Both the position numbers and the translations under genes were made by a program. Of a stretch of DNA of 4,999 bases, positions 3-4,999 are shown in pieces (position 1 is the first letter of the stretch; every line of letters begins with the position of its first letter). Below the pieces are notes generated by a model that was not told the DNA's origin, searched no databases, and was given only the letters and a program-made list of their open reading frames with translations. This DNA is from a virus (lineage: Duplodnaviria > Heunggongvirae > Uroviricota > Caudoviricetes), in the IMG/VR virus record IMGVR_UViG_2695420792_000003; one strand, written 5' to 3'.

Positions 3-155
3 AAAAAGCTTATTATGCTTCCATCGGAAACGATGATCTGGCAGCCTGAGTTCACAGATAAAACACTCTCCAGGAAACCCGGGGCGGTTCAACAGAGCGC
101 GAGCAATCCTCGCCAGAGAAACGGCACATGTAAAATTCCAGCCGTGGCTGGATGA
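3..155 (+). CDS. Possible 3-prime end of an upstream ORF entering the window (unknown product)
   Basis: Frame 3 is open from the window edge to a TGA at 153-155; a terminator-like hairpin follows about 70 nt downstream. No homology recognised; could be non-coding. Confidence 0.2.
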   Translation, partial: KKLIMLPSETMIWQPEFTDKTLSRKPGAVQQSASNPRQRNGTCKIPAVAG

Positions 156-223
156 TAAGTGGAGTCGAGTGTTACCATAATTCCGTCAGAATCTGTTCCA
201 ATAAAGTCACTAGTTAGAAATAC

Positions 224-262
224 TGCCAGCATTCTACGATGACGGAAGTGCTGGCATTTTTT
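224..262 (+). terminator. Candidate rho-independent terminator
   Basis: GC-rich inverted repeat, GCCAGCA at 225-231 pairing with TGCTGGC at 249-255 (extendable to about 10 bp with one G-U pair), loop of about 13 nt, followed by a T-run at 257-262. Confidence 0.45.
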
Positions 263-380
263 GGGTAATATGCGAGTCCATTTCATAAAATACGGGTGCT
301 GTAAACTGGACGATATAATCTAAAATATACCATTACCAGTAGCGTTCAAATCGCTATGTGCCGATACGGATAAAATTATA

Positions 381-409
381 TTGATTGTGCACATACCTTA
401 TTGGATATT
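381..409 (+). promoter_or_regulatory. Candidate sigma70-type promoter for the 439-948 gene
   Basis: TTGATT (381-386), 17-nt spacer, GATATT (404-409) in an AT-rich tract about 30 nt upstream of the start codon. Each hexamer matches consensus only 4 of 6; alternative hexamer pairs exist nearby. Confidence 0.25.
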
Positions 410-438
410 ACTGAGGGGTATTTATATAAGGTGTAACG

Positions 439-948
439 ATGATGTGGAACTTTGACAGTGCCGACTTAAGTGCAATAGCAGCAGGTATTTCTGCGTTTGG
501 CACATTAGCCGCAGCGGGGTCGGCGCTTGCAAGTTGGTACACGTCAAAAAAAGCGCTGCAGCTACAAAATAGAGTTTACCTTTATGAGTCTTTAAAGGCT
601 TGCGCTGAGAGAGCCAATTCATCAGCTAAAGATAAGCGCGGATCTGAATGGAGCGTTAATGATGCAGCGGATATCATCAGGTGCCTAGTACGGGCGATGG
701 AGATCATCAAGCAGGATAGCCAGCAGAAAGAAGGTAATCAGGCATTAATGTTGAAACAGTACTTTGTTAATCTGCTAATAATGGAACTGTACGAGGAAGT
801 TCATAACGGTGATGCGGCTGATTCTGTTTTTAAAAGTACGGAACCTACACAAGTACTTGATAACTTATGGAGCAAATGGCAGGAGGCTATAGCTTTTTTT
901 GATATTTGGAATTACCCAGTTGCGACTGAGGAAGACTTGGCAGACTAA
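439..948 (+). CDS. Hypothetical 169-aa protein with one N-terminal hydrophobic (transmembrane or signal-anchor) segment; unknown function, moron-like accessory gene
   Basis: Intact ATG-to-TAA ORF. SD-like AAGGTG at 428-433, 5 nt upstream of the ATG. Hydrophobic stretch DLSAIAAGISAFGTLAAAGSALASWY, then a charged soluble domain with an acidic C-terminus. Visibly lower GC than the downstream tail genes; upstream terminator and promoter-like elements. No homology recognised from memory. Confidence 0.75.
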   Translation: MMWNFDSADLSAIAAGISAFGTLAAAGSALASWYTSKKALQLQNRVYLYESLKACAERANSSAKDKRGSEWSVNDAADIIRCLVRAMEIIKQDSQQKEGNQALMLKQYFVNLLIMELYEEVHNGDAADSVFKSTEPTQVLDNLWSKWQEAIAFFDIWNYPVATEEDLAD

Positions 949-1044
949 TTTTCAGCACATTTGATTTCCAATAATCAACCAGCCATAATCATGCCATTGG
1001 GGCCTGAACAACTCCGGTGACTTCTGCGCTAAACGGGGACGTTT

Positions 1045-1146
1045 ATGCGCACATACAATCCAACCTCTCTTCTCCATTCACAGATGCAGAAATGCACCTG
1101 CGATATTTTGCATCCAGCGTTTGATCTCTGCGGAGGTGAAGCGTGA
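1045..1146 (+). CDS. Very short ORF (33 codons) whose stop overlaps the start of the NinB-like ORF (GTGA overlap); may be a remnant or leader peptide
   Basis: ATG at 1045 preceded by GGGGA (1035-1039); TGA at 1144-1146 overlaps the GTG at 1143-1145. Too short to judge coding potential; contains an inverted repeat. Confidence 0.15.
1084..1113 (+). repeat. Imperfect inverted repeat (ATGCAGAAAT ... ATATTTTGCAT) upstream of the NinB-like start
   Basis: Arms at 1084-1093 and 1103-1113 are near reverse complements, separated by GCACCTGCG. AT-rich stem, so unlikely to be a terminator; possible protein-binding site or RNA structure. Confidence 0.2.
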
Positions 1147-1397
1147 ACCTCCCACAAGATGGTATCAAATTGCATCGCGGTAACTTCACCGCTATCGGTC
1201 GGCAGATCCAGCCTTATCTGGAGGACGGCAAATGCTTTCGCATGGTGCTTAAACCGTGGCGCGAGAGACGCAGTCTTTCCCAGAATGCACTCAGCCACAT
1301 GTGGTACAGCGAAATCAGTGAATACCTCATCAGCAAGGGTAAAACGTTCGCCACTCCAGCTTGGGTATCCGCACCGGCGGGCGCGTGCTGGCGGTAA
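1143..1397 (+). pseudogene. NinB-like N-terminal fragment (lambdoid nin-region recombination protein family), truncated by fusion to J-derived DNA
   Basis: GTG start with GGAGG (1132-1136) 6 nt upstream. Translation contains RERRSLSQNALSHMWYSEISEYL, resembling the lambda/P22 NinB motif RNRSLDQNRKLWACLGDVSRQV at the same distance from the N-terminus. The frame ends at 1397 after reading into J-derived sequence; only about 65 residues look NinB-like. Confidence 0.5.
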
Positions 1398-2329
1398 ACA
1401 GCCAGACCCGGACGCTGACGCTCGACCGTGAAATCACGCTGCCATCTTCCGGCACCACGCTGATAAGCCTGGTTGACGGGCAGGGGAGTCCGGTCAGCGT
1501 GGAGGTTCAGTCCGTCACCGACGGCGTGAAGGTGAAAGTGAGCCGTGTTCCTGACGGCGTTGCTGAATACAGCGTATGGGGGCTGAAGCTGCCGACGTTG
1601 CGCCAGCGCCTGTTCCGCTGCGTGAGTATCCGTGAGAACGACGACGGCACGTATGCCATCACCGCCGTGCAGCATGTACCGGAAAAAGAGGCCATCGTGG
1701 ATATTGAGAACACCCCTGACGGCATGCAGAGTCAGGTGCTGCTGGCGGCGGACAGGATTGCGATGGTTAATCCTGCGAATGGCAACACAAAACCGATGTT
1801 TGTTGGTCAGGGCGATCAGATATTCATGAACGACGTGTTCCTGAAACGCCTGACGGCCCCCACCATTACCAGCGGTGGAAATCCACCGGCATTTTCCCTG
1901 ACACCGGACGGAAAGCTGACCGCTAAAAATGCGGATATCAGTGGCAGTGTGAATGCGAACGCCGGGACGCTCAACAATGTCACGGTAAATGAAAACTGTA
2001 CGATTAAGGGCATGCTGGAGGCGACTCAGGTCAGAGGTGACTTCGTTAAAGCTGTATCCAAATCATTCCCGAAACAGGCTGGTACGTGGGGTAATACGGA
2101 AACACCAAACGGGACGGTTACAGTCACCATCAGCGATGATCATAACTTTGACCGTCAAATCATTATTCCGCCCATTATCTTTAACGGAATAGCGTATAGC
2201 GATCCGGGAAGTGGTAATAACCGATGCTGCAGGCTCAGCACGTGCCGCCAGCACGTCAGCCGGACAGGCCGCGTCGTCGGCTCAGTCAGCGTCTTCCAGC
2301 GCAGGAACGGCATCGACAAAGGCCCGTGA
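1361..2329 (+). pseudogene. J: Fragment of the lambda J-type central tail fibre / host specificity protein, internally deleted and missing both its N-terminal part and its C-terminal receptor-binding end
   Basis: Frame 2 (open from 1343) encodes [95 protein letters not shown] and later [63 protein letters not shown], matching lambda J as I recall it. There is no ATG (the track start is a TTG). The last 36 codons before the stop at 2327-2329 are stf DNA read out of frame. Confidence 0.85.
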
Positions 2330-4999
2330 AGCAGCAAAAAGTGCTGCTGCAGAGTCCTCAAAAAGCGCGGCAGCTACCAGTGCCGGTGCGGCGAAAACGT
2401 CAGAAACGAATGCGGCAGCGTCACAACAATCAGCAGCCACTTCTGCATCCGCCGCGACCACGAAGGCGTCAGAAGCAGCCACCTCAGCCCGGGATGCGGC
2501 GGCCTCAAAAGAGGCAGCGAAATCATCAGAAACGAACGCATCATCAAGCGCCAGTAGTGCCGCTTCCTCGGCAACGGCGGCAGGCAATTCCGCGAAGGCG
2601 GCAAAGACGTCTGAGACAAACGCCAGGTCTTCTGAAACGGCAGCGGGACAGAGCGCCTCGGCTGCGGCAGGCTCAAAAACAGCGGCTGCGTCGTCTGCCA
2701 GTGCCGCGTCAACAAGTGCCGGGCAGGCCTCAGCCAGTGCCACCGCCGCCGGAAAATCGGCAGAAAGCGCCGCATCGTCTGCTTCAACAGCCACAACGAA
2801 GGCTGGCGAAGCCGCTGAACAGGCCAGCGCAGCAGCGAGGTCTGCATCCGCAGCGAAGACATCCGAAACGAACGCGAAAGCCTCGGAAACCAGTGCAGAA
2901 TCCTCAAAAATGGCAGCTGCATCGTCCGCCAGTTCGGCGGCGTCATCGGCATCATCTGCGTCTGCTTCAAAAGATGAGGCGAGCAGACAGGCATCAGCAG
3001 CGAAAGGCAGCGCCACGACAGCATCCACGAAGGCGACAGAGGCAGCTGGCAGTGCGACGGCGGCATCTCAGAGCAAAACTACTGCTGAATCCGCTGCGAC
3101 CCGTGCGGAAGCTGCTGCTGATCGTGCTGAAGAGATTGCCGGTGCAGTTGCGATGGAAGACGCAAGCCTTACAACTAAAGGTGTTGTGAAACTTAGCAGT
3201 GCTGTTGATAGCACCAGTGAATCGCTGGCCGCAACGCCAAAAGCAGTTAAAGCAGCCAATGACAATGCGAATAGCAGGGTGCCATCTAACCGAAAAGTTA
3301 ACGGAAAAGCACTGACTGCGGATATAACATTAACGCCGAAAGATATTGGTACTTTAAATTCAGTAACGATGTCTTTCTCTGGCGGGGCTGGGTGGTTCAA
3401 ACTGGCTACGGTTACCATGCCACAAGCGAGTTCCATCGTTTACATCGCATTGATTGGTGGCGCTGGTTACAACGTCGGTTCCCCACATCAGGCAGGCATT
3501 TCAGAACTGGTTCTACGAGCAGGCAATGGAAACCCCAAAGGAATTACCGGGGCTTTGTGGAAGCGTACAGCCGTCGGATTAACGAATTTCGCCTGGATCA
3601 ACACATCCGGCGATACATATGATATTTACGTTGAGATTGGCAATTATGCGACGAGTGTAAATATCCATTGGGATTGTACTGCAAATGCGTCAGTTTCTGT
3701 TTATACCTCGCCAACATATTCAGCGAGTAAGCCTTCCAGCGTTACCTATGGTGTTGTTTATACGATGTATAGCTCACATCAGAAACCTACACCATCAGAT
3801 ATTGGAGCACTGCCAACAACCGGAGGAACAGTTTCAGGTCCGTTGTCTGTTACAGGTGGATTAACTGGTTCATTGAATGGTAATGCAAGTACAGCCACGA
3901 AATTGCAGACGGCAAGATCTATCGGTGGAGTTGTTTTCGACGGTTCTGCAAATATTAACCTTCCAGGTGTAAACACTACGGGTAATCAGAACACCACTGG
4001 TAATGCTGCAACTGCTACAAAACTCCAGACTGCAAGAAAAATATCCGGTGTTCCATTTGATGGTTCCAAAGATATTACTTTAACCGCCGCGCATGTGGCT
4101 GCTTTTGCCAGAAGGGCAACGGATACATATGCCGATGCGGATGGTGGCGTTCCCTGGAATGCCGAATCAGGCGCTTACAATGTCACCCGCTCTGGCGACA
4201 GCTATATTCTGGTTAACTTCTATACCGGAGTCGGAAGTTGCCGGACCCTGCAGATGAAGGCGCATTACAGAAATGGTGGTCTGTTCTACCGTTCTTCAAG
4301 AGACGGTTATGGTTTTGAGGAAGGCTGGGCAGAAGTTTATACCTCGAAAAATCTTCCACCAGAAAGCTACCCAGTCGGCGCACCAATCCCGTGGCCATCA
4401 GATACCGTTCCGTCTGGTTATGCCCTGATGCAGGGGCAGACTTTTGACAAATCTGCTTACCCGAAACTTGCAGCCGCTTATCCGTCAGGCGTGATCCCTG
4501 ATATGCGTGGCTGGACGATTAAGGGCAAACCTGCCAGTGGTCGGGCCGTATTGTCTCAGGAACAGGACGGCATTAAATCGCACACCCACAGCGCCAGCGC
4601 ATCCAGTACGGATTTGGGGACGAAAACCACATCGTCGTTTGATTACGGAACCAAATCCACGAATAACACCGGGGCGCATACCCATAGTATTAGCGGGACC
4701 GCAAATAGTGCCGGTGCGCACCAACACAAGAGTTCCGGTGCATTTGGTGGCACGAACACGAGCATTTTCCCTAATGGTTATACCGCGATTTCAAATCTAA
4801 GCGCGGGGATTATGAGCACAACAAGCGGTAGTGGCCAGACTCGTAATGCAGGGAAGACATCATCAGATGGTGCTCATACCCACTCGCTGTCCGGCACTGC
4901 TGCAAGCGCAGGCGCACATGCACATACTGTCGGTATTGGTGCTCATACGCACTCCGTTGCGATTGGCTCACATGGACACACCATCACCGTTAACGCTGC
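2193..4999 (+). CDS. stf: Side tail fibre protein, Stf / StfR-like (lambda Stf family with T4 gp37-like C-terminal tip); 5-prime end replaced by the J fragment, 3-prime end runs past the window
   Basis: Frame 3 is open from the TAG at 2190-2192 to the window end. Translation [18 protein letters not shown]...AAKTSETNA...TATKLQTAR...[72 protein letters not shown]...[11 protein letters not shown] matches lambda Stf and E. coli StfR as I recall them. The only start-like codons in frame are a GTG at 2211 without a good SD and an ATG at 2910; the normal Stf N-terminus is absent. By my recall of the lambda Stf C-terminus, about 20 codons remain beyond the window. Confidence 0.9.
2230..3130 (+). repeat. 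Ala/Ser/Thr-rich low-complexity shaft repeat zone of the tail fibre (recurring AAK(T/S)SETNA units)
   Basis: Four copies of the AAK[TS]SETNA unit, at about 2389, 2514, 2599 and 2851, within GCN-rich sequence. The zone is free of stop codons in several frames on both strands. Confidence 0.7.
3885..4082 (+). repeat. Two tandem copies of a roughly 40-residue phage tail fibre repeat
   Basis: [26 protein letters not shown] (about 3885-3962) and [26 protein letters not shown] (about 4005-4082), period 120 nt. Conserved at the protein level but diverged at the DNA level. Confidence 0.7.
4581..4979 (+). other. C-terminal tip region with seven His-x-His motifs (gp37-like putative metal-binding receptor-binding needle)
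   Basis: In frame: SHTHS, AHTHS, AHQHK, AHTHS, AHAHT, AHTHS, SHGHT, between codons at 4581 and 4979. Confidence 0.7.

Follow-up and report, generated by a model that had tools for sequence, protein, structure and literature searches.

The window, which is the whole stretch of DNA analysed (4,999 nt), is part of an element integrated at icd in Escherichia coli. The annotation of this element (L001) contains int, xis, exo, P and ren, with exo adjoining a truncated O gene, and it contains no head, tail-shaft, lysis or Q genes. A McrB/McrC-like pair is located downstream of tfa, and neither a Pin invertase nor an opposed copy of stf is annotated after tfa. The element is a heavily decayed, defective lambdoid prophage. 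Fragments of ninB, J and stf follow one another in the window, with at least three deletion joints (1363–1367, 1702/1703 and 2219–2222). The features considered here are the following:

961–989, + strand: promoter-like site (TTGATT-17-CATAAT) preceding orf33 and ninB', obtained by consensus scan
1143–1367, + strand: ninB' fragment, about 75 N-terminal codons from a gene of the NinB/Orf family, read in frame 3
1363–1367, + strand: joint 1 (ninB'/'J), with GGGTA common to both parents and the two genes out of frame
1364–1703, + strand: 'J segment 1, codons 488–600 of the 1165-codon J gene, in frame 2 and without its own start
1702–1703, + strand: joint 2, inside J, with TA common to both sides and a 2-nt overlap of the adjacent BLAST blocks
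1702–2222, + strand: J segment 2, codons 912–1084, 100% identical over 521 nt to the J gene of NCTC9008
2190–2192, + strand: TAG closing the stf frame on its 5' side, within J-derived DNA (translation)
2211–2213, + strand: GTG, the first canonical in-frame start of stf, within J-derived DNA and with GGGAA only 0–1 nt upstream (a poor ribosome-binding site)
2219–2222, + strand: joint 3 (J'/'stf), with AACC common to both parents (alignment and overlap of BLAST blocks)
2220–4999, running off the window end, + strand: 'stf, which starts at codon 146 of the side tail fibre gene and is 99.0–99.2% identical to intact stf
2222–2329, + strand: stf DNA read out of frame by the J frame for 35 codons (RCCRLST...IDKGP), then TGA at 2327–2329 (translation and codon list)
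2910–2912, + strand: internal ATG without a Shine-Dalgarno sequence, from which PGAP begins a 716-aa 'phage tail protein' in strain E2

The ninB' fragment matched phrog_72 (E = 1.7e-21) at profile positions 7–82 of 161, and PGAP calls it a pseudogene without a C-terminus. Joint 1 was placed where its DNA homology to phage nin regions stops (1367) and that to J begins (1363/1364). The ninB' reading frame continues into J DNA as far as a stop at 1395–1397, and J is entered out of frame from it. Stops of the J frame are situated just upstream of 1361, and neither an initiation codon nor a ribosome-binding site was found upstream in that frame.

The first J segment showed 96% identity by BLAST to positions 6001–6341 of L003 and 2797–3136 of L004. 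Joint 2 is an in-frame deletion of 933 nt, by which J codons 601–911 (311 codons, including two Ig-like domains) have been lost. In the second segment, Pfam searches recognized positions 41–138 of 139 of PF09327 (Phage_Tail_Tip) and 1–47 of 135 of PF12421 (C-terminal receptor-binding). An intact homologue carries all six domains, namely FNIII-A, Phage-tail_3, two Ig-like domains, Tail_Tip and the C-terminal receptor-binding domain, whereas only a partial Tail_Tip and a partial receptor-binding domain are left here, most of the latter having been removed by the deletion at joint 3. PGAP also marks 'J as a pseudogene. The J pieces are dead fragments without a start.

An earlier note on this DNA had described an out-of-frame join of J to stf within 2180–2330, with lom and the first part of stf absent. 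Both points were borne out by translation and by BLAST comparison with intact J-lom-stf loci. J DNA extends to 2222 and stf DNA begins at 2219, and frame 2, that of J, meets frame 3, that of stf, within 2180–2330 as described. The window matched the intact locus in only three collinear blocks, lom and the stf 5' end being missing. Intact loci with the order J-lom-stf-tfa (prophages of NCTC9008 and 22AR0750; phages ev099, mEp332 and phi458) have the same gene order and 93–100% nucleotide identity in the parts kept here. Identity of intact J-lom-stf prophages to both flanks of joint 3 was 99–100%, and one NCTC9008 prophage contains the two flanks, 1702–2222 as J at 100% and 2219–4999 as stf at 99%. 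In the alignment, the shared AACC is preceded by AAT and followed by CGGG in J, and is preceded by GC and followed by GATG in stf. Relative to NCTC9008 the deletion at joint 3 comprises 1416 nt, covering the last 81 codons of J (1085–1165), the whole of lom and stf codons 1–145; J codons 1–487 and 601–911 are also absent from the window. The length of this deletion is divisible by three, but since the parental frames of J and stf differ, the two are joined out of frame.

Some details of the earlier description had to be corrected. The end of J homology had been placed near 2185, but it runs to 2222 at 100% identity with the NCTC9008 J gene; the stop of the J frame at 2327–2329 was confirmed, with 35 out-of-frame codons before it. 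An 11-residue peptide at the join had been proposed, with the reservation that it might be a coincidence, as a remnant of lom. This was ruled out, since the peptide belongs to an uninterrupted run of J, with 100% identity at the nucleotide level, and intact J continues through it in an 18-residue stretch; the likeness to the Lom C-terminus is coincidental.

The stf remnant retains a shaft rich in Ala and Ser, a collar domain and a tip of His-rich fibre repeats, and Pfam detected Collar (E = 4.8e-12) and Phage_fiber repeat. It is devoid of phage_tail_N (PF08400), the N-terminal domain through which the fibre is attached to the virion and which covers residues 1–134 of the NCTC9008 Stf protein (E = 7.6e-70). 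The stf stop comes 61 nt after the window ends, and an intact tfa, an assembly gene, lies directly downstream (in L001, the stf ORF ends at 16972 and tfa spans 16972–17556). In most genomes carrying joint 3 the frame remains open for 955 codons. As the earlier note had observed, GTG 2211 is a start with a poor Shine-Dalgarno sequence, GGGAA lying directly against it, and the only other canonical in-frame start before position 3000 is ATG 2910. In carriers other than strain E2, PGAP starts the gene at the equivalent of 2196 (ATA). Because these choices differ (2196 or 2910), the annotated start of stf is arbitrary. The stf remnant is a long frame that has stayed open but has no credible start for translation. 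The shaft region also carries an antisense 'hypothetical protein' annotation, probably a spurious one.

The identical out-of-frame joint was found in 17 of 5426 complete E. coli genomes (0.3%), coming from different laboratories and hosts; ML35, NCTC9100 and E2 are among the carrier strains. As the three joints occur together, a single origin of the scar is expected. Sixteen of them were 100% identical over 200 nt spanning joint 3, and the 17th aligned without gaps and had the same joint. It was further present in two IMG/VR contigs and two metagenome contigs, the latter with coverages of about 110x and 208x according to the contig names. A search pattern allowing 0–4 nt at the joint gave the same spacing only, and no in-frame variant was found. 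None of the matching phage records had the joint, and every one of them has an intact J-lom-stf. The joint was not found among GTDB representatives, a set with one genome per species that includes one E. coli genome only, which makes this result uninformative. As the joint is base-for-base the same in 16 complete genomes, and the 17th genome and four contigs share it, it is not a chance feature. Matching genomes gave a median of two places each for the 200-nt query, and most E. coli genomes contain several homologous copies.

The locus has continued to decay in some carriers. Strain RM10410 has an IS2 insertion in stf and Z217 a 519-nt deletion in the same gene. Strain Z1323CEC0014 has the same three joints and differs from the window at 0 positions in 89–1250 versus 121 positions, mostly synonymous, in the J/stf-derived part (1250–4999). 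This pattern fits patches imported from other J/stf copies, in an apparent gene conversion between the dead remnant and live prophage copies.

We consider it very probable that the J-stf joint is a microhomology-associated deletion scar in a defective lambdoid prophage. The earlier note had offered a pseudogene scar as one of its two alternatives, and this is the one that holds: the flanks are collinear with intact loci and the genes between them are missing as a single 1416-nt deletion, the joint has a 4-nt microhomology, the window contains two more joints, and all other structural genes of the element have been lost. The parent prophage had the usual J-lom-stf order. A break-and-join event or a replication slip from AACC to AACC would then have eliminated the end of J, lom and the start of stf, the likely mechanism being microhomology-mediated illegitimate recombination, and the remnant is presumably not expressed. 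The finding is already known in kind, being an ordinary deletion scar and not a hidden chimeric fibre gene.

Truncated stf genes are found in the cryptic prophages of E. coli K-12, such as stfE/stfP in e14, stfQ in Qin and stfR-tfaR in Rac (PMC12529663, PMC3945230). Like these prophages, the present one is a defective lambdoid or e14-type element that has kept the distal stf-tfa part and lost other structural genes and, like e14, it lies at icd. However, the remnant is bounded on its 5' side directly by a J'/'stf deletion joint, the annotation includes no Pin invertase or invertible segment after tfa, and the stf allele is a long Ala/Ser-rich one (about 1092 aa) with 99% identity to those of intact prophages. 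The e14 StfE2 type is switched by a recombinase, a Pin-family invertase and opposed stf/tfa copies accompanying an invertible segment (PMC12529663); the present element departs from it in that McrB/McrC-like genes come after tfa, with no invertase or opposed stf annotated.

The remnant could also act as a passive store of tail-fibre sequences that are exchanged, through homologous recombination, with lambdoid phages residing in or infecting the cell. Such a role, which we regard as possible but rather doubtful, would be a consequence of the scar and not another origin for it. It is favoured by the abundance of homologous copies in most E. coli genomes, by the confinement of the Z1323CEC0014 differences to the J/stf-derived part, and by the experimental acquisition of stf-tfa DNA by lambda from the Rac and Qin defective prophages (PMC3945230). 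Nevertheless, exchange does not imply selection for the remnant.

Far less likely is that the truncated Stf protein is translated alone, from GTG 2211, ATG 2910 or a non-canonical start, and serves the host together with Tfa, for instance by blocking phage receptors. In its most explicit form, which we judge equally improbable, truncated Stf and Tfa would be transcribed from a nin-region promoter and translated from a weak or non-canonical start, and the host would have kept them as a factor that masks receptors or acts against phages in another way, beside the McrBC-like system in an icd-site defence island. The promoter-like site at 961–989 is the only candidate source of transcription into the remnant. 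It could drive transcription through the region, and no strong terminator was predicted between it and stf. The promoter and terminator scan gave site counts no higher than in shuffled sequence, and this site alone gains some support, by coinciding with putative −35 and −10 sequences annotated in the phage 82 record X92588. In such an arrangement, the ninB'/'J deletion would have brought the nin-region promoter within about 1.2 kb of the remnant. The 955 open codons, the intact tfa and the protein call made here by PGAP in every carrier agree with expression, and there is a precedent in StfE2 of e14, which also lies at icd: a chimeric fragment of Stf from this cryptic prophage, produced from a plasmid, lowered T2 adsorption (PMC12529663). 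Against it, both canonical starts lack a credible ribosome-binding site and the PGAP starts disagree, no Pin invertase or invertible segment follows tfa in the annotation, and the gene is disrupted or shortened in two carrier lineages. The dN/dS of 'stf against intact alleles was 0.06–0.16, but that of the dead J fragment was equally low (0.07–0.22), and therefore the low value is no sign of selection on the remnant; it goes back to functional alleles or was brought in through gene conversion.

The other alternative put forward in the earlier note, a chimeric fibre that would combine a J trunk with the shaft and tip of Stf through a one-nucleotide correction or a frameshift, proved untenable. 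A programmed +1 (or −2) frameshift or transcriptional slippage would have at its disposal a zone of 137 nt (2193–2329) that is open in both the J and stf frames. However, this zone has neither an X XXY YYZ heptamer nor a homopolymer exceeding 3, nor, at four rare-codon or stop contexts, any P-site codon able to re-pair in +1. In addition, the upstream J frame begins at codon 488 without an initiation codon or a ribosome-binding site and bears the internal deletion of 311 codons, so there is no trunk to give. The arrangement is not conserved either, as it arose from a deletion present in only 17 of the 5426 genomes, and all the matching phages have separate J, lom and stf genes. The chance that frameshifting operates here is therefore close to nil. 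A sequencing or assembly indel near 2180–2230 hiding a single in-frame J-Stf gene, whose sole basis is that a one-nucleotide change would join the frames, is just as implausible and can be taken as excluded, because the 17 complete genomes and four contigs have identical joints with no other spacing, no homopolymer run at the joint favours indel errors, and the J part would anyway have neither N-terminus nor start.

The laboratory strain lambda PaPa is without side fibres owing to a 1-nt deletion in stf. As in that phage, a frame problem inactivates the side fibre gene of the present element, and tfa is kept (PMC3945230). However, the lesion of lambda PaPa is a single-base frameshift in an otherwise complete gene of a viable phage, and one nucleotide restores it, whereas 1416 nt are missing here and changing one nucleotide would do no more than fuse two fragments.

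The deletion scar matters little beyond annotation: what is called 'phage tail protein' and 'phage tail tip domain' at this locus are pieces of a single decayed J-lom-stf module. The locus offers a clean, datable case of a prophage decaying step by step, three microhomology joints having been followed by hits from an insertion sequence and a deletion. It would be of wider interest only if the truncated fibre were expressed and protective; a truncated Stf kept by the host would then be a non-invertible counterpart of e14 StfE2.

Translation of the window showed that frame 2 is open from 1361 to the TGA at 2327-2329, encoding a J-like part and then 35 unrelated codons, and that frame 3 opens past the TAG at 2190-2192, becomes side tail fibre sequence and leaves the window end still open. 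GTG 2211 and ATG 2910 are the only canonical in-frame starts of the stf frame before 3000, and no usable Shine-Dalgarno was found at either of them. Therefore, the core observation of the earlier note, that the J and stf frames meet out of frame and that stf lacks its own start, was correct.

In other E. coli genomes this DNA is present in intact form: a J gene of 1165 codons, then lom, an stf of 1092 codons and tfa. BLAST comparison of the window with two of these intact J-lom-stf loci gave three collinear blocks:

1364-1703, first block of the truncated J ('J), J codons 488-600, 96% identity
1702-2222, second block of J, J codons 912-1084, 100% identity to NCTC9008
2219-4999, truncated stf ('stf), stf from codon 146, 99.0-99.2% identity

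At the J'/'stf joint, J reads ...GGTAATAACC followed by CGGGAGG and stf reads ...CATGCAACC followed by GATGCTG, the tetranucleotide AACC at 2219-2222 being common to both parents. With respect to the intact prophage copy of NCTC9008, 1416 nt are missing, comprising J codons 1085-1165, lom with the spacers on either side of it, and stf codons 1-145. Although 1416 is divisible by three, the joint is out of frame because the parent J and stf genes lie in different frames. The collinear blocks and this deletion with AACC microhomology support the pseudogene scar that had been proposed as one alternative.

The losses are also evident at domain level. Intact J contains FNIII-A, Phage-tail_3, two Ig-like, Tail_Tip and C-terminal receptor-binding domains, of which the window keeps no more than positions 41-138 of Tail_Tip and positions 1-47 of the 135 in the receptor-binding domain. 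Intact Stf begins with a prophage tail fibre N-terminal domain (residues 1-134, E 7.6e-70); the Stf product of the window is devoid of it and retains the shaft, collar and fibre-repeat tip.

The region is part of an element that in strain E2, one of the E. coli genomes carrying this remnant, is inserted beside icd. Its genes are int, xis, exo, P, ren, emrE, a ybcK-type recombinase, the J/stf fragments, tfa and a McrB/McrC-like pair, and no head, tail-shaft, lysis or Q genes are annotated. According to PGAP, the truncated ninB (ninB') and the J piece are both pseudogenes and incomplete. The element is a strongly decayed lambdoid prophage. Since exo directly adjoins a truncated O gene, this boundary suggests a fourth deletion joint in addition to the three of the window. 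The remnant, which takes up the icd attachment site of the E2 chromosome, also bears a DGQHR-domain gene; its ybcK-type recombinase is of the serine type, and its McrB/McrC-like pair (AAA ATPase/McrC) lies at the right end beside the duplicated icd fragment. Within the window, a 169-codon ORF at 439-948 (GC 0.44, preceded by a stretch at 0.37) lies after the antirepressor remnant and before the nin region; it matches phrog_1779, of unknown function, over its full length, gave no Pfam match and may be an accessory gene.

Some observations might suggest that the truncated stf is still alive. Most carriers have an uninterrupted frame of 955 codons, tfa is intact, and dN/dS of 'stf against intact alleles is 0.06-0.16. 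However, this low value is uninformative of function because the J fragments, which are unable to function, give 0.07-0.22; it reflects variation that came from functional alleles by inheritance or import. The phage 82 record has a putative promoter ahead of orf33-orf151, and at the same place the window has a promoter-like site (961-989), from which transcripts could run through the stf remnant; the promoter scan overall gave no more sites than in shuffled sequence. Other observations speak against a living remnant. The carrier Z1323CEC0014, with the same three joints, has no differences from the window in 89-1250 and 121 in 1250-4999, mostly synonymous and all in J- and stf-derived DNA. From the sequence comparison, this pattern suggests that a dead remnant has undergone gene conversion by other prophage copies of J/stf rather than diverging slowly. 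In RM10410 the stf remnant is interrupted by IS2 at ~3648-3652, with flanks overlapping by 5 nt, and Z217-2 has a 519-nt in-frame deletion (3985-4501, 2-nt overlap). The start that PGAP assigns to the remnant is arbitrary, as it differs between carriers: some have ATG 2910, others an ATA equivalent to 2196.

The repetitive Ala/Ser-rich shaft (2223-3150) seems prone to in-frame length changes, and at 2345 the window differs from ML35, Z1323CEC0014 and the intact alleles by 3 nt (one Ala codon). The same shaft contains, on the minus strand at 2282-3028, a 248-codon antisense ORF. In E2 and ML35, PGAP lists most of this ORF (equivalent to 2282-3016) as a hypothetical protein. The ORF is probably spurious, a mirror of the GC-rich repeats in this region (GC 0.62).

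A chimeric fibre with a J trunk and an Stf shaft, produced by frameshifting, was rejected. No initiation was found for the J frame, stops being present just upstream of 1361. The preceding gene is the truncated ninB (75 of ~151 codons, phrog_72), which is in another frame and ends at 1395-1397. The overlap of NinB homology, which extends to 1367, with J homology, which starts at 1363/1364, marks a second deletion joint, where GGGTA is common to both parents and the 75-codon ninB' is placed out of frame with J codon 488. A third joint, inside J at 1702/1703, shares TA and is an in-frame 933-nt loss of codons 601-911, corresponding to the Ig-like domains. The J piece is therefore two disconnected internal fragments without a start. 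The frameshift-site check of the overlap at 2193-2329 identified neither homopolymers longer than 3 nor X XXY YYZ heptamers, and +1 re-pairing was allowed at none of four rare-codon or stop contexts there. Thus, there is no signal joining J to stf.

The 11-residue peptide at the join, taken as a possible lom remnant, is uninterrupted J sequence, which in intact J goes on ...NNPGGTRYTGYGF; its resemblance to Lom is therefore a coincidence. The Lom C-terminus IAYEGSGSGDW falls inside the deleted stretch.

A sequencing indel as the cause of the frame break is excluded. Window positions 89-4999 were found in 17 of 5426 complete E. coli genomes (97.5-100% identity), whose assemblies have differing laboratories, hosts and countries of origin. 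A 200-nt query over the joint was fully covered in exactly these 17, sixteen at 100% and one at 98% ungapped. The 40-nt joint sequence is also in two IMG/VR contigs, and a pattern search in which 0-4 nt were permitted between the two sides recovered no spacing other than that of the window, in these and in two metagenome contigs (~110x and ~208x coverage according to the contig names). No in-frame version was found in any of these genomes or contigs, nor was the joint found in phage records, J, lom and stf being separate in all matching phages. The 17 carriers and the four other contigs match from position 89 only, and positions 1-88 are similar to the termini of IS3-family (IS1203-like) elements sited elsewhere in E. 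coli; judging from this sequence likeness, an IS appears to adjoin the P22AR-domain remnant in the window's own strain.

Decayed prophages keeping the distal stf-tfa module are familiar; K-12 offers e14, Qin and Rac as examples. Both Qin and Rac have been shown to donate stf-tfa DNA to lambda (PMC3945230), and T2 adsorption is claimed to be blocked by a chimeric e14 Stf fragment when this is made from a plasmid following inversion by Pin (PMC12529663). In contrast to that e14 system, the locus of the window has no annotated invertase or opposed stf copy, and the analogy would leave only a slight probability of the host making use of the truncated fibre. The J'/'stf join itself is an ordinary microhomology-associated deletion scar in a defective prophage.
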